Below are positions 18,160-29,118 of a DNA stretch of 64,000 bases, piece by piece. How positions within the stretch are numbered: the first letter of the stretch is position 1; the number at the start of each line of letters is the position of its first letter. The notes under the pieces are model-generated. The model was given only the letters and a program-made list of their open reading frames with translations, made no database searches and had not been told where the DNA came from. Source of the DNA: an uncultured delta proteobacterium (GTDB taxonomy: Bacteria; Desulfobacterota; Desulfomonilia; Desulfomonilales; Desulfomonilaceae); assembly GCA_963789265.1 (NCBI GenBank), contig CAWBKB010000003.1, positions 736,001-800,000 of the forward strand. Direction: 5' to 3'. A program made the translations under genes and the position numbers.

Positions 18160-18282
18160 CATTCAGTCTTGTGGGGCACTCCCGCGACGCGCGGGACAGC
18201 CTGCCGGGGAAACCCCTGTTCAGTGGCGGGCTAGAAAGCCCACCCCACGAAACCATCCGCAAATTCCGGCTGTTACTGAATG
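18160..18282. mobile_element. ~123-bp MITE-like repeat, copy 1
   Basis: CATTCAG...CTGAATG termini; colinear with 26530-26653. Confidence 0.8.
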
Positions 18283-18350
18283 TATACGCACCCGGATTGT
18301 TCAGCGCAGTCAAAAATACACAGCCCGTTTGATGCCCCCACATTGAAGCT

Positions 18351-19070: not shown

Positions 19071-20660
19071 TTAACCCTCCTTAAGTTCCTCCAGAACCTG
19101 CCTGAGTATGTCCGGCTTTACCTCCATGCCTGGTTCCACTGCACCAATTTTTCTTATCAAGACAAAGCGTACGCGGCCGCCGATGTTCTTTTTGTCAGCG
19201 GCCATTGCCTTGACAAGCCCGGTCGGATCCTCACTGTGACAAATCGGCAGGCCGGTTCGGCTCAGCAGAGACTCCAGCCTGTCCGGTTCATCCGAGGAGC
19301 ACAGCCCCATTTTCTCGGAAATTCTTGCCGCGGCAACAAGACCGATGGCAACGGCTTCTCCGTGGCCCAAGGCGTATCCACTGCACTTTTCCAGCGCGTG
19401 GCCCACCGTGTGCCCGAGATTCAAGACTTCACGCAGGCCGGATTCAAAAGGATCGGCTTCCACAACCCGAACCTTGACGTTGGCTGAACGAGCCACCAGG
19501 GCGGGACTCAAGTTGGATGGTCGATCGGCGCTCTCTAGAGCCTCAAAGAGTTCGGGGTCACCGATCACGGCATGTTTGATAAGCTCTGCCATGCCCATCC
19601 GAATTTCTCTTTCCGGAAGTGTGGCGAGCGTTTGCGTGTCCGCAGCAACCAGCACCGGCTGTTTGAAGGCCCCCACGAGATTTTTCCCCTGAGGCAGGTC
19701 AACCCCCGTCTTACCGCCCACACTGGAATCGACCATGGCCAGCAGCGTAGTCGGGCATTGAACCAGAGTTATCCCTCGCATGTAAGTTGCCGCTGCGAAT
19801 CCTGCCAAGTCTCCGATCACGCCGCCACCCAGTGCGATCACAGCGCCGCGACGATCCAGTCCTCCTTCCAAAAAGGAGTTATAGAGGAAGCTGAGTTGCT
19901 CGAGGTTTTTGCTCTCCTCTCCCGGTGGAACTTTGAATACAAAGGGCTTGAAACCTGCACTCTCGAGTGCTGTGACCACCTGATGCGCGTACAATTTGGC
20001 GACGTTCAGGTCTGTGACCACGGCAATCCTGGAAGTAAGGCCCCTTTCTCTGAGTTGCTCCCCGAGCAGATCAAGGACTCCAGGCCCTATGCCAATTGTG
20101 TAACCACCACCGGGAAGATTCACTGCAATAAACATGGATGGGTCTTTTCCGTTGCTAACGATTTGATGCAAGCGATTGACCGCCCTTTCCACAAGTGAAT
20201 CCGTGGTGTCCACGTGGTATGCAAATGACACGTACGCAGCTTCACGTTCACGAAGAAGCGCTTTCACACGCTGGATGCGGTCTTCACCCTCTATCATGGG
20301 GCGTTTTTCGTTCCTGCAGACCCGGGTCAGAATCTCATCTGCCGAGCACCGCAGGCAGACTACAATACCCGCGGAATTCAGGAGCTTGCGATTTTCCGGA
20401 TCCAATGGCATCCCCCCGCCGGTGGCTACCACCGCGCCCCGCTGAGTCACGAGTTCCCGGCACAATTGTCTTTCCAGATCACGGAAGTGCCCCTCACCAT
20501 GCCTGGTGAAGATTTCAGAGACGGACGCTCCTGCACGACGCTCTATTTCCGCGTCCGTGTCGAGAAATCTCAATCCAAGCCGCGAAGCGAGCGCGCGACC
20601 TATAGTAGTCTTTCCTGTGCCCATGAAACCAGTAAGGATTATATTTGCGTATGCTGTCAT
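19071..20660 (-). CDS. aroKB: Shikimate kinase / 3-dehydroquinate synthase fusion
   Basis: GFMGTGKT Walker A and GEGHFRDLE; then GGGVIGDLAGF, PTTLLAMVDSSVGGKTG, NLGHTVGHA. Confidence 0.93.
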   Translation of the reverse strand: MTAYANIILTGFMGTGKTTIGRALASRLGLRFLDTDAEIERRAGASVSEIFTRHGEGHFRDLERQLCRELVTQRGAVVATGGGMPLDPENRKLLNSAGIVVCLRCSADEILTRVCRNEKRPMIEGEDRIQRVKALLREREAAYVSFAYHVDTTDSLVERAVNRLHQIVSNGKDPSMFIAVNLPGGGYTIGIGPGVLDLLGEQLRERGLTSRIAVVTDLNVAKLYAHQVVTALESAGFKPFVFKVPPGEESKNLEQLSFLYNSFLEGGLDRRGAVIALGGGVIGDLAGFAAATYMRGITLVQCPTTLLAMVDSSVGGKTGVDLPQGKNLVGAFKQPVLVAADTQTLATLPEREIRMGMAELIKHAVIGDPELFEALESADRPSNLSPALVARSANVKVRVVEADPFESGLREVLNLGHTVGHALEKCSGYALGHGEAVAIGLVAAARISEKMGLCSSDEPDRLESLLSRTGLPICHSEDPTGLVKAMAADKKNIGGRVRFVLIRKIGAVEPGMEVKPDILRQVLEELKEG

Positions 20661-20896: not shown

Positions 20897-22081
20897 TCAC
20901 TCGTACCCGAATCTCCAGGGAATATTGTCCATGGGAAGATCCGCGATTCTAGAACTTCTCAGGCTCCGGAATCTTGACGTCATCTCATCCAGGCCGTCTC
21001 CGCCGAGCTTTTCTATCAAGGCATCGGCAAGGACAAACGCAACCATTGCTTCAGCCACAACAGACGCCCGGGGGACAGCGCATATATCGCTACGTTCGTA
21101 CGTCGTCTTCACGCGTTCGCCTGTGGCCAGATCAACGGAGTGAATGCCCTTGAGAGTCGTGCTGATAGGCTTCATGGCCGCTCGGATCAGTAGTGGGGCG
21201 CCTGTAGTTATGCCCCCTTCCAGGCCGGCAGCCCGGTTCGATCCCCGTTTCAAAGCAGTTTCTATCTCATCTTGATCACGAACGATTTCGTCGTGAACGT
21301 TAGAGCCTCGCTCACAGGCGTCCACAAACGCGTTGCCGAACTGAACACCCTTGATGGCAGGAATAGACCCCACCGCGGCCATGAGCCTGCCGGTGAGCCT
21401 TCGATCCCACTCCACGTGGCTTCCAAGTCCGGGCGGGACATTAAGCGCAACGCACTGGAAAATCCCTCCCAGAGTATCACCTTCCTCTCTGGCTTTTCCG
21501 ATCTCCGCGACCATTGCGGTACTGGCCTCGTTGTCAGGACATCGGACAGGCGATGTCTCCGCTTGGCGGAACAATAGGCCATAATCGGGCCTTTCAGGGA
21601 CTTCAGCTTCAACAGGGCCTATGGAAAGCACATAAGAGCCTATTCTGATGTCAAAGCATCCGAGAAATTTCCGACAGATGGCCCCCATGGCGACACGCGC
21701 CGCAGTCTCTCTTGCCGAAGCCCGTTCCAATCCCAGTCTAAGTTCCCTGTAACCGTATTTAACTGCTGAAGTCAGGTCAGCGTGGCCGGGTCTGGGAATT
21801 GTCATGGGAGGAATATCCCGGTCGCGCCAGGAATTGAAGTCTTTGTTGGCAATTATGAGCGAGACTGGGGCGCCGGTGGTCTGCCCGGCCATGATGCCTC
21901 CCGTAATTCTCGCGCGGTCATCTTCTATTGACATTCGGCCGCCTGACCCTTCGCTCCGCTGGCGTCGGGCCAGTTCGAAATCTATGTCCGTTCGAGAAAT
22001 AGGGATCGCGGCAGGGAGGCCTTCGAGAATAACTGTGAGTTCAGGTCCGTGGGATTCGCCCGCGGTCAGAAATCTCAGCAT
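20897..22081 (-). CDS. aroC: Chorismate synthase
   Basis: LTAGESHG, PRPGHAD, ERASARETAARVA, MKPIST, ERSD. Confidence 0.95.
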   Translation of the reverse strand: MLRFLTAGESHGPELTVILEGLPAAIPISRTDIDFELARRQRSEGSGGRMSIEDDRARITGGIMAGQTTGAPVSLIIANKDFNSWRDRDIPPMTIPRPGHADLTSAVKYGYRELRLGLERASARETAARVAMGAICRKFLGCFDIRIGSYVLSIGPVEAEVPERPDYGLLFRQAETSPVRCPDNEASTAMVAEIGKAREEGDTLGGIFQCVALNVPPGLGSHVEWDRRLTGRLMAAVGSIPAIKGVQFGNAFVDACERGSNVHDEIVRDQDEIETALKRGSNRAAGLEGGITTGAPLLIRAAMKPISTTLKGIHSVDLATGERVKTTYERSDICAVPRASVVAEAMVAFVLADALIEKLGGDGLDEMTSRFRSLRSSRIADLPMDNIPWRFGYE

Positions 22082-22920
22082 AGTGCTACCGCCTGCTTCA
22101 TTACGGCTAATGGCGCCGCTTTGCCTGTCCAGAGTGAAAATGCAATCGCAGCCTGATGGACCAACATTCCAAGTCCGTTTGTCGCCTTAACCCCCGCATC
22201 TTGCGCCTGTTCCATAAGACGCGTGCGAGGCGGATTGTACACCAGGTCATAGACCATTCGGCACTTGCGAAAACTTGTCCCCTCCGGCCACGGAGAATAA
22301 TCTGTCTTGGGAGCCATGCCCAGTGGAGTGGTATTTACGATCAGATCTACGTCCCGGTCCGGTTCCTGAAGCCTTTGAAGCGTCCAAGTTTCGACAAAGC
22401 CCTTCAAATCGGATTTTGTCAAACGCGCAACAATGGCTCCGGCTGTTTCGTCATTCCGACTGCACACAGCCACCCTTGCCCCATTCGAAACCAGAGCATA
22501 AGCTACCGCCCGAGCCGAGCCGCCTGATCCTAGTATTACGGCAGTACATCCATCGGGGTCAAAGCCCATTTCCTTAAGATGGCAGAGGAAACCGGTCCAA
22601 TCCGTGTTTTCTCCTATCAGGCTTCCGTCGGGCCCGACCGTAATTGTGTTGACTGCTCCGATCTCTGAGGCATCCGCGGAAACACTATCGAGAAATGGGA
22701 TGACCCTCTCTTTGTACGGCAGCGTCACATTGACCGCTCGGAATCCCAGCGCAGGCAACCCTTTTATGGCCCCTGCCAAGTAGTGCGGCTCCACAGGCAG
22801 CGGCACGTAAAGCCAATCCATGCCCAGTAACTGAAATGCCGCGTTGTGCATTGCAGGGCTCAGACTATGCGCGACAGGATTCCCTATGATGCCGACCAGC
22901 TGTGTAGCGCCCGTCACCAT
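22075..22920 (-). CDS. aroE: Shikimate dehydrogenase
   Basis: GNPVAHSLSPAMHN, NVTLPYK, GAVNT, NTD, GLGMLVHQA; start overlaps the aroA stop (ATGGTGA). Confidence 0.93.
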   Translation of the reverse strand: MVTGATQLVGIIGNPVAHSLSPAMHNAAFQLLGMDWLYVPLPVEPHYLAGAIKGLPALGFRAVNVTLPYKERVIPFLDSVSADASEIGAVNTITVGPDGSLIGENTDWTGFLCHLKEMGFDPDGCTAVILGSGGSARAVAYALVSNGARVAVCSRNDETAGAIVARLTKSDLKGFVETWTLQRLQEPDRDVDLIVNTTPLGMAPKTDYSPWPEGTSFRKCRMVYDLVYNPPRTRLMEQAQDAGVKATNGLGMLVHQAAIAFSLWTGKAAPLAVMKQAVALC

Positions 22921-24257
22921 TGAACGTCTGCCCCTAGCCCTTTTAGAATGCGGGGGAATTCCGGGAATGAATCGTTGATGATTTCCCATCCTTGAATCAA
23001 CGTTTCCCCCTCGGCCACAAGACCTGCAATTGCCAGACTCATGCCCAATCTGTGATCTCCGCGAGCGTTCACAACAGCGCCGGTAAGTTTGCGCGGACCG
23101 TTGATAGTAAAACCGTCGGCCGCGGTTTGGATGTCGGCCCCCATTTTATTCAATTCCTCAGCCAGCGTGTCGATCCTATCGCTTTCTTTGACCCGAAGTT
23201 CCTCTGCGTCCCGCACGACGGTTGTGCCGCTTGCTTGAGTGGCAGCGACTGCAAGTATTGGAAACTCATCAATCATCCTGACAACGATTGCTCCTTGTAC
23301 GGTAGTCCCCCGGAGCGCTCCCGACTCCACTGTAATGGTCCCCGTCGGTTCGCCATTGGATTCCGTCGCTCCATTCACACGCAGGTTTCCTCCCATCGAG
23401 TGCAGCACGTCGAATAATCCTGTCCGTCCTGGATTAAGGCAGAGATTCGTGACCTGAAGGCTCGAATCGGGAACCAGTAAGCCCGCTGTTACAAGGAACG
23501 CGGCAGAGGACGGGTCGGAAGGAAGGTGTACGTCCAGCGGTGGAAGAGAGGTGATGGGTCCCGAAACGGTCACGTGGTGTCGGCCCTCTTGGTCTTCATA
23601 TTCTGTAACGGGCACACCCAGGCTCTTAAGCATACGTTCTGTGTGATCTCTACTTGTGAAGGGCTCGATCACTGTCGTGGGACCGTCAGTGAAAAGACCT
23701 GCCAACAGGAGCGCGGATTTTACTTGCGCGCTGGCTACTGGAAGGAGATGCTGCGACGGCTGCAATCGAGACGGGAAAAATGTCAGAGGTGCGTTTCCGT
23801 TGTCTGTCTCGATTTTAGCCCCTTTTGTGCGAAGTGGTTCCACGACCCGACCCATAGGCCGTGCACGTAGGCGGTCATTGCCGTCAAGGGTGGACTGAAA
23901 TGCCTGGCCCGCCAGGATTCCGGCCATTAATCGCATAGTCGTGGCCGAACCTCGACAGTGGAGAGGCGCGGAAGGCACCGCAAAACCTACCAGATCCTTA
24001 CCTGTTACCAGGAGATCGGCAGCCCCGGGCTGGATAGTCGGCCTGAGTTCTTCAACCACCTGTACTCCAAGCGTCTGAAGGCATTCGATCATTGCAAGAC
24101 TGACCCCAGCCTTCGCGCAATTCCGGATCCGTGAGACTCCGCTCCCGAGAGAAGCGAACAACAGGGCTCGGTGCGATAAAGATTTGTCCCCCGGCAATGA
24201 CACGACCCCGCGCAAACGGCGGGTGGGCCGAATTCGAAGGGTCTTGGGATCAGCCAT
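22914..24257 (-). CDS. aroA: EPSP synthase (class II)
   Basis: PGDKSLSHR, ASAQVKSA, SRDHTE, LRVKESDR, DHR. Confidence 0.95.
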   Translation of the reverse strand: MADPKTLRIRPTRRLRGVVSLPGDKSLSHRALLFASLGSGVSRIRNCAKAGVSLAMIECLQTLGVQVVEELRPTIQPGAADLLVTGKDLVGFAVPSAPLHCRGSATTMRLMAGILAGQAFQSTLDGNDRLRARPMGRVVEPLRTKGAKIETDNGNAPLTFFPSRLQPSQHLLPVASAQVKSALLLAGLFTDGPTTVIEPFTSRDHTERMLKSLGVPVTEYEDQEGRHHVTVSGPITSLPPLDVHLPSDPSSAAFLVTAGLLVPDSSLQVTNLCLNPGRTGLFDVLHSMGGNLRVNGATESNGEPTGTITVESGALRGTTVQGAIVVRMIDEFPILAVAATQASGTTVVRDAEELRVKESDRIDTLAEELNKMGADIQTAADGFTINGPRKLTGAVVNARGDHRLGMSLAIAGLVAEGETLIQGWEIINDSFPEFPRILKGLGADVQW

Positions 24258-25152
24258 TCGTACGGGTTCCTTCCTCAGAGGATATATGTGGGTGAAACAT
24301 TGCTGTTCTGCGTTCTCGTATTTGGCTCAGGATTTTTCGCAAGGCTCCGTTATCCTCATCCTTGATGGCACTTGCAAATCTTTTCATCATTCGTTGGGCC
24401 AACTCAAGCATTTGAAGCACGTTGTCCCGGTTGACTGCAAGAATGTCCGTCATCATGGTCAAATCAGCGCCTGCAACTCTTGAGGTGTCCCTGAACCCGC
24501 TTGAGGCCAAGTTCCACACATCGGGTTCTTCCGACGCGGTTACTTCGGCAACCGCGACTAGGGTCGAGGCGAGAAGATAAGGGAGATGGCTGACGCATGC
24601 TGCGACCAGGTCATGGTCGTCCGCGTTCATCGGCATAGGCCGTGCACCCACAAGCTTAACCATCTGTTCGATGAGACTAAACGCTTCAGGGTCGGTCCGC
24701 TCCGTACGAATGAGCACCCATGTCTTGCCCAGGAACAAGTCCGCGTCTGATGTATAAAGGCCGGGTGTCTCTTTTCCGCACATCGGATGCCCGGCCACCG
24801 CCCTGATGTGCGGCGGCAATTGGTCCATAACCTTCAATATGTTCCGTTTGACGCTGCCCATATCCGTTACGATGGCGCCGGCCTTCATGAAAGAGTGTAG
24901 CGGCAGGATTTGCTGTTCAATGGTGCAGACCGGGGTTGCAAAGACCACCACTTCGGCACCATCGAGAAGCTGTTGCGGATCTACACCGGCGATGTGAGCT
25001 GCTCCAAGGGCTACAGCCTCCTCTGCGATAGCCTGACGCCTTACCAGTCCCCTGACTTCCCGGCAAACTTCGCCTCGTACCAGCGCTTTGCCGAGGCTCC
25101 CCCCCATGAGCCCCAGGCCCACAATCGTAATCGTCAAATCTGAAAGCGTCAC
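24250..25152 (-). CDS. tyrA: Prephenate/arogenate dehydrogenase
   Basis: GLGLMGGS, TDMGSVK, HPMCG, SHLP, GFRDTSR. Confidence 0.92.
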   Translation of the reverse strand: MTLSDLTITIVGLGLMGGSLGKALVRGEVCREVRGLVRRQAIAEEAVALGAAHIAGVDPQQLLDGAEVVVFATPVCTIEQQILPLHSFMKAGAIVTDMGSVKRNILKVMDQLPPHIRAVAGHPMCGKETPGLYTSDADLFLGKTWVLIRTERTDPEAFSLIEQMVKLVGARPMPMNADDHDLVAACVSHLPYLLASTLVAVAEVTASEEPDVWNLASSGFRDTSRVAGADLTMMTDILAVNRDNVLQMLELAQRMMKRFASAIKDEDNGALRKILSQIRERRTAMFHPHISSEEGTRTNG

Positions 25153-25283: not shown

Positions 25284-26297
25284 TCAAATGGTTCTCCCCA
25301 CCGCCTCGGCAACCGGACGCAGCTCGTCCATAAGCGCTTGAAACTCATGGGGGCGGAGGCTTTGCGCGCCGTCAGACAGCGCATTCTCAGGGTCCGGATG
25401 GACTTCAATAATGAGTCCGTCGGCCCCCGCGGCGATGGCCGCGCGACTCACCGCGGGTACGTATTCGCGCTTTCCGGTGCCGTGGCTCGGATCCAGTATA
25501 ACCGGAAGGTGGCTCAGGGATTTAAGCACGGGTACAGCATTGATGTCCACGGTGTTCCGGGTGGAAGTCTCGAAAGTGCGTATTCCACGTTCACAAAGAA
25601 TTACGCGCGGGTTGTTGTGGCTCAGTATGTATTCCGCGGCGTTGAGAAACTCTTCTATTGTGCTCATGAGTCCGCGCTTAAGGAGCACCGGTTTATGGGA
25701 TGCGCCCACCGCGTTGAGCAGAGCAAAATTCTGCATGTTGCGCGCGCCCACCTGCAGCACATCCGCGTACTGAGCTACCAGCGGCACTTGTTCCGGCGTT
25801 GTGACCTCGGTTACGACCGCGAGGCCCGCCACGTCCCTAGCTTGCGCCAGGAGCTTGAGACCTTCCTCTCCGAGGCCTTGAAAGCTGTATGGCGAGGTCC
25901 GAGGTTTGAACGCGCCGCCTCTTAGGGCTGTTGCTCCTGCCTTTTTCACCGCGAGCGCCGTCTGAATGAGTTGATCTTTGTTTTCGACCGCGCAGGGGCC
26001 GGCCATGATAATGATTTTCTTGCTCCCAATATGGGACCCGTCGATGGAGAAGACCGTGTCTTCTTTCTTGAAGTCCCGACTGGCAAGCTTAAACGGCCCC
26101 AAAAGCGGAACCACACGCTCGACGCCCTCCAAGCACTCGAAAGCGTCCGCTTCCACTCCACTATTGTCGCCGACAACCCCAACGATGGTGCGAATCTTCC
26201 CTCTGGAAACATGGGCCTTCATTCCCACGGCTTCCACCTTGGTCAAAACCCGCGCCACCTGGCCCTCAGTTGCTTCCTTTTTCATGACTACCACCAT
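25284..26297 (-). CDS. aroF: DAHP synthase, type I-beta with N-terminal regulatory domain
   Basis: [44 protein letters not shown]. Confidence 0.95.
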
Positions 26298-26309
26298 CTT
26301 TTTTCCTCC

Positions 26310-26346
26310 AAAAAAAAGATGCGGAGCGCTTGCTCCGCATCTTTTT
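26310..26346 (-). terminator. Attenuator terminator upstream of aroF
   Basis: mRNA AAAAAGAUGCGGAGC-AAGC-GCUCCGCAUC-U8, directly abutting the aroF GGAGG RBS. Confidence 0.88.
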
Positions 26347-26384
26347 GTTCCGTTGTATGGATTATCTAACAGCAGAAGCGCGCG

Positions 26385-26459
26385 TCAACCTCCGGGGGGC
26401 CCAAAATAGTACCACCAAAAATACCGAGAAGACGCGCTCATGTGCTGCAACTGACTCAT
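26385..26459 (-). CDS. aro operon leader peptide MSQLQHMSASSRYFWWYYFGPPGG
   Basis: 24-codon ORF with AAGAGG RBS; seven consecutive aromatic codons (TAT TTT TGG TGG TAC TAT TTT); terminator about 40 nt downstream. Confidence 0.88.
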   Translation of the reverse strand: MSQLQHMSASSRYFWWYYFGPPGG

Positions 26460-26529
26460 AGTTTCAAAATGCCTCTTATCTTACAGAAATACGATCCCAT
26501 GAAAATTATGTCAAGACTTTTTTTGTGAG

Positions 26530-26653
26530 CATTCAGTTTTGTGGGGCAGTCCCGCGAGGCGCGGGACTGCCTGCCGGAGGAAACCCCGGTTCGATGGCGG
26601 GCTGGAAAGCCCACCCCACGAAGCCACTGGCAAATTCAGGCTGTAACTGAATG
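26530..26653. mobile_element. ~124-bp MITE-like repeat, copy 2
   Basis: GCATTCAGTT / AACTGAATGC inverted termini; colinear with 18160-18282. Confidence 0.8.
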
Positions 26654-26768
26654 CATACCTTTCTTGGAAAGATGGTCTGTTAGTTTACTCCAGACCTTGA
26701 ATTCATCGGTCGTTCTGTGAATAATCCAGACACCTACATCAATACCACTTGATTCAGCAAGGCGGACC

Positions 26769-27860
26769 ATGACTAAACAGAACCTCGAAGAGTTGCGTGC
26801 CCGGATAGACGAACTTGACAATGATATAGTCAAACTCCTGAACCACAGAATGGCCTTATGTCAGAAGATAGGACAGTTAAAATCCGCGGCTGCTCGAAAC
26901 GTTGTCGACCGGGAGCGAGAAGCGGAAATCCTTCAGCGACTTGCCTCCGAGAACTCCGGCCCTCTTTCCGAGCAGGCGCTGTCCGCTGTATTTCGCGAAA
27001 TTTTCTCGGGCTCCAGGGCCTTGCAAGCCCCCGTGACCATAGCCTTCCTGGGGCCCGCCGGCACGTACACCCATGAGGCTGCTATAGAGATGTTCGGGCA
27101 TTCAGCTACGTTCATTCCCTGCCTGACCGTGCGGGATGTCTTTGAAGAGGTGGTTCATGGAGGCGTTACCTATGCCGTAGCCCCCATAGAGAATAGTATT
27201 GAGGGGTCTGTCCGAGAGACCTTGGACCTGTTGATGACTTCCTCGATCGGCGTTTGCAAAGAAGTCTCTCTGAGGGTGAGCCACGCGCTCATGAACCTCA
27301 CGGGAAAAATCGAAGATATCCGGCAAGTAATCTCCCACCCCCAGGCACTAGCTCAGTGCCGTCGGTGGTTGGCCGACAAACTTCCGGACGTTCCGCTGCG
27401 AGATACGTCCAGCACCGCCAGAGCGGCCGAACTGGCAATAGAGGATGTGGGAACAGCGGCAATCGCGAGTGAAAGAATTGGCGTAAGATTGGGCTTGCAA
27501 ATAATACGACGCGGCATTCAAGACAGCCCCGAGAATATTACACGATTCTTCGCCCTGGGGCGCATCAAACCGACACCGACCGGAGATGACAAGACATCAA
27601 TAGTGTTTTGGACTGAAGACAAGCCTGGGGCATTGCACAAGATACTCAAGAAATTCGCTCAGCATGGAATAAACCTGTCAAGGATAGAATCTCGCCCGGA
27701 CCGTGGAGCGGTTGCTTGGAAATATGCATTCTTCGTGGACCTGGAAGGTCATAGAGACGATCCGGAAGTGGCAACTTGTTTGAAGGAAATCACCGGCAAG
27801 AGAACTATGGTTAAAGTGCTGGGATCGTTTCCCAGCCGCTCTCTGCCCCCCGGTGAGTAA
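26769..27860 (+). CDS. pheA: Chorismate mutase / prephenate dehydratase (P-protein)
   Basis: LRARIDELD chorismate mutase domain; FLGPAGTY, ENSIEG, SHPQALAQC, NITRF, IESRP ACT domain. Confidence 0.95.
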   Translation: MTKQNLEELRARIDELDNDIVKLLNHRMALCQKIGQLKSAAARNVVDREREAEILQRLASENSGPLSEQALSAVFREIFSGSRALQAPVTIAFLGPAGTYTHEAAIEMFGHSATFIPCLTVRDVFEEVVHGGVTYAVAPIENSIEGSVRETLDLLMTSSIGVCKEVSLRVSHALMNLTGKIEDIRQVISHPQALAQCRRWLADKLPDVPLRDTSSTARAAELAIEDVGTAAIASERIGVRLGLQIIRRGIQDSPENITRFFALGRIKPTPTGDDKTSIVFWTEDKPGALHKILKKFAQHGINLSRIESRPDRGAVAWKYAFFVDLEGHRDDPEVATCLKEITGKRTMVKVLGSFPSRSLPPGE

Positions 27861-28024
27861 AAAGGAGTCGTCTTCAAAGAACCACGGGAATTTTGTATTA
27901 TGAGAATATTATGTAACAATAACACCTAAATATATCTTATATATAATCCTAAGTAGCAAATATCTTGACAATACATTATTTTTATGAGATAAACATCTCC
28001 AGTAAATAAAACACCATACCCTAT

Positions 28025-28052
28025 GTTGCCCGGCTTTGCCGGGCTTTTTTTT
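28025..28052 (+). terminator. Intrinsic terminator
   Basis: GCCCGGC-TTT-GCCGGGC hairpin followed by a T run. Confidence 0.75.
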
Positions 28053-28187
28053 TGCCGCGATTCATGTTGACTTGCCCGGACCGGCCTGGCTAGACTCGCC
28101 TTGGTGCTTCTTATATTAACAGCCTTCAGACAACCGGCTGCAAGGCGAATCGTATCAACCGGCTTCCAACCACTAGAGGGTTCGACA

Positions 28188-28616: not shown

Positions 28617-28666
28617 ACGATCTAAGGCCTGACACCATTCGCTTTCAATAGGTAAGAATCGGTGAC

Positions 28667-28782
28667 TAGCAAACAGCACTGACCTGGCACTATGACGGCG
28701 CTTCCCGCGAGACACGGGATGGCACCCAATTTCCATTCGTGAGATCTTGGGTGCCACGGATCTGGGTTTCGTCAGATCCGTG
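28667..28782. repeat. Palindromic interspersed repeat, copy 1
   Basis: TAGCAAACAGCACTGACCTGGCAC...TGGCACCC...GGGTGCCACGGATC...AGATCCGTG; colinear with 41483-41589. Confidence 0.78.
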
Positions 28783-28919
28783 AAGTTTTGGGTGCCATCT
28801 CGCCTTACAGGCCTGAGAGACGCAAAACGAAACCGGGAAAAGGCTTGATCCCACGATCGTCAAGAACTCAATGCAAATCCCCTCCTGGTGCTGCGGTCAC
28901 GCACGTGGGGAAAAAAAAG

Positions 28920-29086: not shown

Positions 29087-29118
29087 AAAGGCCATGGGCA
29101 GACACCCCATGGCCTTTT
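29087..29118 (+). terminator. trp attenuator terminator
   Basis: AAAGGCCATGGG-CAGACAC-CCCATGGCCTTTT; leader GTCTGCC (29028-29034) is complementary to GGCAGAC (29097-29103), giving an antiterminator. Confidence 0.8.

Follow-up and report, generated by a model that had tools for sequence, protein, structure and literature searches.

The aro operon and the genes around it

The window analysed here, a stretch of 64,000 nucleotides from the genome of an uncultured delta proteobacterium, carries on its minus strand a run of shikimate-pathway genes that begins with aroF and continues through tyrA, aroA, aroE and aroC to an aroK-aroB fusion (Table 1). Between aroF and the divergent pheA lie a predicted promoter, a short leader ORF and an intrinsic terminator hairpin, and a second short ORF, with Trp codons, precedes trpE on the plus strand. 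A dsrA match over the cut-off was found in the genome, which is therefore probably that of a sulfate reducer. dsrA and miaA each match in two pieces (G000:C6:339556-340795, C5:805917-806778), and these splits suggest assembly indel errors or broken genes.

Table 1 Genes and predicted regulatory features of the aro locus, with positions in the window
Feature	Position	Strand	Remarks
aroK-aroB fusion	19071..20660	-	236 nt after aroC; probably co-transcribed
aroC, chorismate synthase	20897..22081	-	
aroE, shikimate dehydrogenase	22075..22989	-	
aroA, EPSP synthase	22914..24257	-	
tyrA-family prephenate/arogenate dehydrogenase	24250..25152	-	E 5e-60, below curated cut-offs
aroF, DAHP synthase type I-beta, N-terminal ferredoxin-like regulatory domain	25284..26297	-	
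aroF Shine-Dalgarno (SD) GGAGG	26305..26309	-	Read from sequence; unpaired once the terminator forms
U8 tract	26310..26317	-	Read from sequence
Intrinsic terminator hairpin, 10-bp GC	26318..26341	-	5' arm 26341-26332 = segment 3; A-U extension to 26346-26313
Segment 2 (switch strand at/just after stop codon)	26372..26386	-	Partner of segment 1, or else of the terminator 5' arm and loop
Leader ORF, 24 aa	26385..26459	-	A counterpart at each related aroF locus that has upstream sequence (29/29)
Control codons 13-19: Tyr Phe Trp Trp Tyr Tyr Phe	26403..26423	-	All seven inside the predicted antiterminator-permissive stall window
Segment 1 (protector 5' strand, codons 8-12)	26425..26438	-	Pairs with segment 2 if no ribosome is on top; MFE fold, RNAalifold helix in 17 sequences
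Leader-ORF SD GAGG	26472..26475	-	12 nt ahead of ATG
Predicted sigma-70 leader promoter	26486..26514	-	TTGACA 26514-26509, 17 nt, weak -10 TATTTC 26491-26486
Divergent pheA (chorismate mutase-prephenate dehydratase-ACT)	26769..27860	+	Own promoter-like site 26697-26725 near ATG
Trp-only leader ORF ahead of trpE, 21 aa, four Trp codons	28972..29037	+	Terminator ~29090-29118

An earlier note on this DNA had proposed that the leader controls the shared trunk of the pathway. The leader precedes the aroF operon, but aroQ lies outside it and runs, like the trp genes, opposite to the aro operon, and a second DAHP-synthase-like gene on contig C1 is without a copy of the aroF leader. In addition, six promoter-like sites were found in the aro operon against 3.3 +/- 1.9 expected, with weak ones before tyrA and aroKB, and weak internal promoters may be present.

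The Trp-only leader ahead of trpE is unannotated, and its promoter-like element (TTGACA-17-TATTCT) is much like that of the aro leader. A Trp-run leader was found at 10 of 14 trpE loci. For pheA, no leader ORF was seen in the window, and a loose pattern gave scattered, unconserved matches in 5 of 10 loci. Judged from these sequences, the circuit is tiered, the Trp branch having its own Trp-only leader and pheA none. Searches for TrpR, TyrR-type HTH proteins, T-box and TRAP found none in the 95.6% complete genome, with positive search controls, in agreement with the lack of TyrR and TrpR assumed in the earlier note. For Phe, Tyr and Trp, one tRNA gene apiece was detected (ARAGORN).

Several elements were also observed in the intergenic DNA. 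A palindromic repeat of ~130 nt lies at 26530-26658, between the divergent aro and pheA promoters, with a second copy at 18160-18287; it has 30 near-full-length copies in the genome and resembles a MITE or a REP-like element. Between aroQ and the trp leader, at ~28625-28785, lies a member of another repeat family, which is more diverged (71-82% identity) and has at least 11 other copies. Between pheA and aroQ (27965-28054, plus strand), a promoter-like TTGACA is followed ~50 nt on by a GC hairpin and a long U-tract; this may be either the pheA terminator or a very short RNA, and its Rfam matches are at chance level only.

A conserved aromatic leader ORF upstream of aroF

The leader ORF translates as MSQLQHMSASSRYFWWYYFGPPGG, 24 codons followed by a stop, and contains the run YFWWYYF, seven consecutive codons for three Tyr, two Phe and two Trp. 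A six-frame scan of the 6.06-Mb genome found 60 aromatic runs of at least five residues and three of at least seven, and the sole one of these three inside a short Met-initiated frame is the aroF leader. With its ATG, conserved SD and stop codon, the frame is a short uORF predicted to be translated, and its seven aromatic codons place tandem control codons for the pathway products ahead of the shikimate genes; translation of the window and the GAGG site thus agree with the ORF, ribosome-binding site and aromatic run first described there. No Pfam or NCBIfam match was obtained for the ORF, and no Rfam family matched the leader RNA at E up to 10, Trp_leader and Phe_leader included.

The expression signals of the leader are conserved as well. 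An SD-like word stands 8-14 nt before the uORF ATG in 17/17 loci of the window's family, the spacing in the window being long but conserved, and TTGAC stands 51-57 nt ahead of the ATG at all 17. The leader promoter is absent from the output of a consensus promoter scanner; from the conserved elements we infer a transcription start near 26480. Another promoter-like site, within the leader at 26388-26361 (10 of 12 positions), was rejected as probably due to chance, because a start there would fall after segment 2 and most relatives differ at this site.

For the comparison with relatives, 41 genomes were searched, an aroF match was found in 38, and 30 loci were taken, one of them without upstream DNA. 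Conservation of the uORF in relatives had been named as a test of the leader, and each of the 29 loci with upstream sequence has a short ORF that contains an aromatic run and ends 64-116 nt ahead of aroF; Tyr, Phe and Trp occur together in 27 of these 29 leaders. Seventeen of the loci belong to the window's family and share RNA sequence, and 12 loci of a sister family share the layout with different helices. When run on 70 genomes of the family, a covariance model built from the 17 loci gave a match in 45, with E<1e-9 in 40; the window genome has a single match. Against 29 outside loci the model is weak, with 11 matches at E 0.003-0.4, and against the sister family it matches at E 0.04-0.4 only, the helices looking unrelated and the layout being equal. 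At 27 further family loci a script found 24 leaders, 23 of them preceding aroF, with Tyr in 24, Phe in 22, Trp in 18 and all three in 16, counts that come from related genomes and are not independent trials. At L269, one of the three loci missed by the script, a leader is present on reading.

Aromatic leaders also occur further afield. A phylum sample of 151 genomes provided its best 28 new aroF loci, 11 of them flagged as operon-internal, and an aromatic leader was found at 10 of the 17 non-internal loci, with Trp in nine of the ten. Among the matches listed, 80 named aroF loci of many phyla were considered and 15 passed a filter of five aromatic residues in eight. Six of the 15 have, by eye, a short start-to-stop leader and a terminator-like hairpin, five of them with Trp; they belong to Anaerolineaceae, Methylomirabilis, Phycisphaerales, Desulfurellales and two Acidobacteriota.

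Some features of individual groups were also recorded. The sister-family leaders (L019-L030) look leaderless: they have no SD, and in 6 of 8 loci with a correctly called start the ATG is preceded, at 35-37 nt, by a -35-like word. The PPVG at the C-terminus of these leaders is invariant and falls on the antiterminator strand. A conserved protein of ~177 aa follows aroF in this family (L021:930-1463, minus strand, and its counterparts in L019-L030) and would sit under the leader; it has no Pfam match at E up to 1. In genome G015, a second copy of the leader family (L262:1773-1966, minus strand), with three Trp, three Tyr and three Phe, does not precede aroF, and the gene after it encodes a 414-aa protein with repeated Trp-containing motifs, beta-propeller-like by eye. 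At L061 (Clostridiaceae), a 62-codon stop-to-stop frame rich in Tyr, Phe and Trp lies upstream of aroF-tyrA-aroA-pheA. Among the matches listed, the closest aroF from outside the window's own family (L031-L038) are mostly from Anaerolineae/Chloroflexota at 63-68% identity, above the 55-59% of the sister-family aroF, and transfer of aroF between lineages is possible on these sequences.

Alternative RNA helices and ribosome geometry

The GC hairpin, the U8 tract and the adjoining aroF SD are present as claimed in the earlier note, so that an intrinsic terminator stands before the first gene of the operon. Its core has a folding energy of -19.5 kcal/mol, and its pairs form in 100% of the cells at 15 out-of-sample loci, with compensatory changes in three pairs, in an alignment fitted to the model. 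A simple terminator scanner did not list it, probably because its A-run pairs with the U-tract. The aroF SD is unpaired with the terminator formed, which argues for transcriptional control rather than SD occlusion; occlusion of the SD by the hairpin was rejected on this ground.

Two mutually exclusive pairings had been proposed for the leader. Both are complementary in the window (7/7 and 9/9 pairs), but the family favours a shifted register for the antiterminator, in which 26379-26375 pairs with 26336-26332, 26383-26380 with 26329-26326 and 26373-26372 with 26338-26337. The shifted register has an energy of -12.4 kcal/mol, compared with -9.4 for the register of the earlier note, and over the 17 sequences it is paired in 141 of 153 cells (nine pairs counted) versus 124 of 153. 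A check for covarying stems in relatives, as originally suggested, showed that the antiterminator covaries with the terminator: two pairs are compensatory, and the covariation score was reached by 7/500 shuffles, which ignore relatedness. In L006 and L009, where the terminator arm carries a single change, a matching change is found in the 3' arm and in segment 2 alike, and a change mirrored in this way was read by eye in L269. At the 15 loci outside the model, the core is paired in 75/75 cells and the whole antiterminator in 125/135, the alignment being fitted to the model. The covariation rests on few events among related sequences, and the model was used to fit alignment A3.

The antiterminator and terminator thus exclude each other across the family, while in the window genome alone the antiterminator lies within the range of shuffles (132/1000 and 256/2000 as strong). 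The protector helix between segments 1 and 2 is also present, with 36/2000 shuffles as strong in the window genome and 96% of the cells paired at the 15 out-of-sample loci in the fitted alignment. The protector register first proposed is the more stable one in the window genome (-11.6 vs -8.3), and the family slightly favours a three-base shift (97 vs 91 of 119 cells). Covariation of the protector is modest, since 22/500 shuffles reach its score and a +2 slide scores higher, and the folding z-score of the whole leader is only -1.88.

The single-genome result for the antiterminator, together with regulator searches that covered four families only, would suit a hairpin acting as a constitutive or protein-controlled terminator next to an ORF that is incidental or encodes a functional peptide, such as a TnaC-like arrest peptide or a small membrane peptide. 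We regard this as very improbable. The terminator and segment 2 covary, Tyr, Phe and Trp replace one another inside the run, and the aromatic run and three helices persist while the peptide is free to vary in its length (23-34 aa in the first calls), its stop position and its residues; the conserved residues at a fixed distance from the stop that mark a TnaC-like arrest sensor were not found.

Ribosome-mediated attenuation, for which masked folding had been suggested as a check, was examined by exposing the transcript as far as the terminator loop and masking the RNA up to a point 12 or 15 nt beyond the A-site. The probability P that segment 2 captures the terminator 5' arm is ~0.6-0.7 for A-site codons 8-22 (~0.7 for codons 13-19), 0.01-0.24 when the ribosome is at the stop codon and 0.00-0.02 when there is no ribosome; under a looser metric, which counts any upstream pairing, the no-ribosome value is 0.44 for the window leader. 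In silico, a stall at any of the seven aromatic codons thus permits the antiterminator, and a ribosome at the stop, or none at all, largely does not. When the full-length RNA is folded, equilibrium favours the terminator in every row among those listed, so the switch must be kinetic and decided during transcription, which is when attenuators in general make their decision. A looser automatic test was applied to 45 leaders, 44 of which were scored, two with poorly chosen terminators. The contrast between stalled and stop positions exceeded 0.25 in 37/44 leaders (14/17 of the family), and that between stalled and no ribosome was found in 20/44 (15/17 in the family, 2/11 in the sister family).

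From these features, the following course of events may be proposed. Transcription would begin near the predicted start, and a ribosome would load on the uORF, as the conserved promoter and SD suggest. With charged tRNAs, the ribosome would reach the UGA at 26387-26385 and either cover segment 2 or release, upon which the 1:2 helix would form; the terminator predicted in silico would then fold, and transcription would end at the U8 tract near 26310. A stall on codons 13-19 would instead block segment 1 and leave segment 2 free to capture the terminator 5' arm through the two main helices of the shifted register (26379-26375 and 26383-26380 with their partners). Folding and covariation are consistent with this capture, which would have to precede emergence of the 3' arm so that the polymerase reads into aroF.

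Conservation, covariation and geometry lend good support to attenuation of the aro operon and bear out the ribosome-mediated layout recognised at the outset, and on all features computable from sequence the aroF leader belongs to the class of leader-peptide transcription attenuators. On the basis of the folding model, we consider it highly probable that a classical ribosome-mediated transcription attenuator couples aroF-tyrA-aroA-aroE-aroC(-aroKB) to aromatic tRNA charging.

Amino acids sensed and relation to known aroF leaders

Pooled over the family, Tyr is present in 41/41 leaders, Phe in 38/41 and Trp in 34/41. Read from these sequences, a three-way OR gate is not a family constant: Tyr is constant, Phe nearly so and Trp optional. 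The idea that a leader without Trp marks a genome without Trp synthesis was rejected, as trpD and trpA are present in all seven genomes with Trp-less leaders (7/41). The sole genome checked that is without both trpD and trpA is G220 (81% complete), whose leader has Trp outside the run.

In the window leader, the permissive window contains two or more codons for each of the three amino acids, and one tRNA gene was found for each, so shortage of any one should relieve termination. Functional sensing of Tyr, Phe and Trp together in the window genome therefore appears, under the folding model, somewhat more probable than its alternatives combined. The chief alternative is the same attenuator with a response to Tyr and Phe alone, or mostly to Tyr, and with Trp codons that are passengers or a minor input. 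Both Trp codons of the window leader lie inside the permissive window, and TGG accounts for 1.25% of the codons when the genome's long ORFs are counted. Neighbouring Trp codons turn up repeatedly in different genera, and E. coli trpL likewise relies on two Trp codons side by side. Trp is further found in 12/12 sister-family leaders and in 9/10 leaders of other phylum families, whose RNA sequences differ. A Tyr-centred sensor nevertheless accords with the constancy of Tyr as against the 34 leaders with Trp, two of which have it only outside the run, and with six leaders of one genus and L013, which are without Trp though their genomes keep trpD and trpA. It also accords with the presence of tyrA in the operon at many family loci, with the separate attenuator for Trp, and with published aroF leaders, which in the available parts of the sources are described as F-Y-F. 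On balance, this narrower sensing seems unlikely, if still a serious contender.

A different kind of signal is conceivable too, as Phe, Tyr and Trp codons are all UNN. MiaA modifies the tRNAs that read such codons, and in P. aeruginosa trp leaders become active when MiaA is lost, according to the accessible part of PMC13434334. The window genome has the two-piece miaA match, and the Pro-Pro codons 21-22 likewise fall in the permissive window. Even so, it is improbable that UNN-codon decoding (i6A37/ms2i6A37, MiaA/MiaB) or stress on translation in general is what the leader mainly reports. Few other UNN residues occur in the runs (Leu 5, Ser 3 and Cys 1 vs Tyr 94, Phe 71 and Trp 37, in windows picked for aromatic content), Pro-Pro is not kept across the family, and the gene context is the pathway for exactly Tyr, Phe and Trp. 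Any effect of UNN decoding would feed into this switch as a secondary signal.

The use of mixed control codons for several amino acids has counterparts in other pathways. The thrL (Thr, Ile) and ilvL (Leu, Ile, Val) leaders are multi-amino-acid attenuators, and they share with the aroF leader the OR logic of mixed codons over a branched pathway, theirs being aspartate-family and branched-chain rather than aromatic. Like E. coli trpL and pheL, the aroF leader has a protector, an antiterminator, a terminator and control codons in a leader ORF, whereas trpL and pheL are described as sensing one amino acid on a terminal branch and the window leader precedes the aro operon (PMC11802643, PMC1183508, as far as their accessible text goes).

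Leaders ahead of aroF have already been published. In C. glutamicum, the aroR-aroF attenuator (Neshat et al. 2014, via the accessible parts of PMC11802643 and PMC7356990) has an F-Y-F leader at which stalling relieves attenuation; aroR responds to Phe and not to Tyr and is, in the part of PMC11802643 available, the one tested aroF leader in print. The window leader resembles aroR in placing a leader peptide with aromatic control codons ahead of a DAHP synthase operon. By description, it differs from this actinobacterial leader, which has F-Y-F only, in its seven codons including Trp-Trp. In Firmicutes, the predicted 'aromatic amino acid attenuators' uORF-12 and uORF-13 (Stav et al. 2019, PMC6429828), with 1258 and 336 examples, precede aroF, tyrA and other shikimate genes. 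They too combine a uORF and a terminator ahead of aroF/shikimate genes, and are set apart by their description as F-Y-F or F-Y-rich, with no mention of Trp in the accessible text. Similarly, uORFC-13-1 of Acholeplasma (Brewer et al. 2021, PMC8632094, part of the text) has a uORF and a terminator, found exclusively before aroF in 24 sequences; it is described with at least one Phe codon and belongs to another phylum than the window leader. In summary, the window leader has the position before aroF/shikimate genes and the terminator of aroR, uORF-12, uORF-13 and uORFC-13-1, and its run does not follow the F-Y-F consensus of aroR and uORF-13; compared by description, it is assigned to none of these named aroF-leader families.

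Further reports come closer in lineage or input. A table for Shewanella, in the part of the source available, lists an aroF attenuator sensing Tyr-tRNA, and the accessible part of PMC1173090 gives, without leader peptides, putative attenuators ahead of tyrA operons, among which are Thermus thermophilus aroAI-beta-tyrA and a Desulfovibrio vulgaris supraoperon. Our search of the openly accessible literature found no aroF leader with Trp control codons and no case from a sulfate reducer. Lopatovskaya et al. 2010 reportedly covers delta-proteobacterial attenuators, and a prior attenuator prediction for the phylum of the window may exist, for example there. The surprise that the earlier note implied for a leader on the common trunk is reduced, since aroF leaders (aroR, uORF-12/13, uORFC-13-1) are already in print, as far as those sources could be seen. 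What is new, judged from sequence comparison, is an uncatalogued aroF-leader family in which Trp codons are often though not always added; the type of switch is known. Because both the mechanism and the idea of an aroF leader have been published, the result is a useful extension for the specialist rather than a surprise.

In conclusion, the aroF leader supplies a regulatory logic for the synthesis of aromatic amino acids in a lineage of sulfate reducers in which searches for the textbook regulators came up empty. The RNA family that it defines is compact, can be modelled and is unmatched by Rfam, Pfam and NCBIfam. Its natural variants with and without Trp or Phe codons are directly usable for weighing several amino acids in one leader. 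We give roughly even chances to a broader reading, in which the leader is a true three-input sensor placed on the common trunk above a Trp-only trp leader, in a lineage without detected TrpR, TyrR, TRAP or T-box. Such sensors would have been built several times with different helices, in the window's own family, the sister family, other families of the phylum, Chloroflexota, Acidobacteriota, Planctomycetota, Methylomirabilis and Desulfurellales, and their Trp input would be gained and lost by single codon changes. If this is true, mixed aromatic leaders would be a main, largely uncatalogued mode of DAHP synthase regulation outside model organisms.
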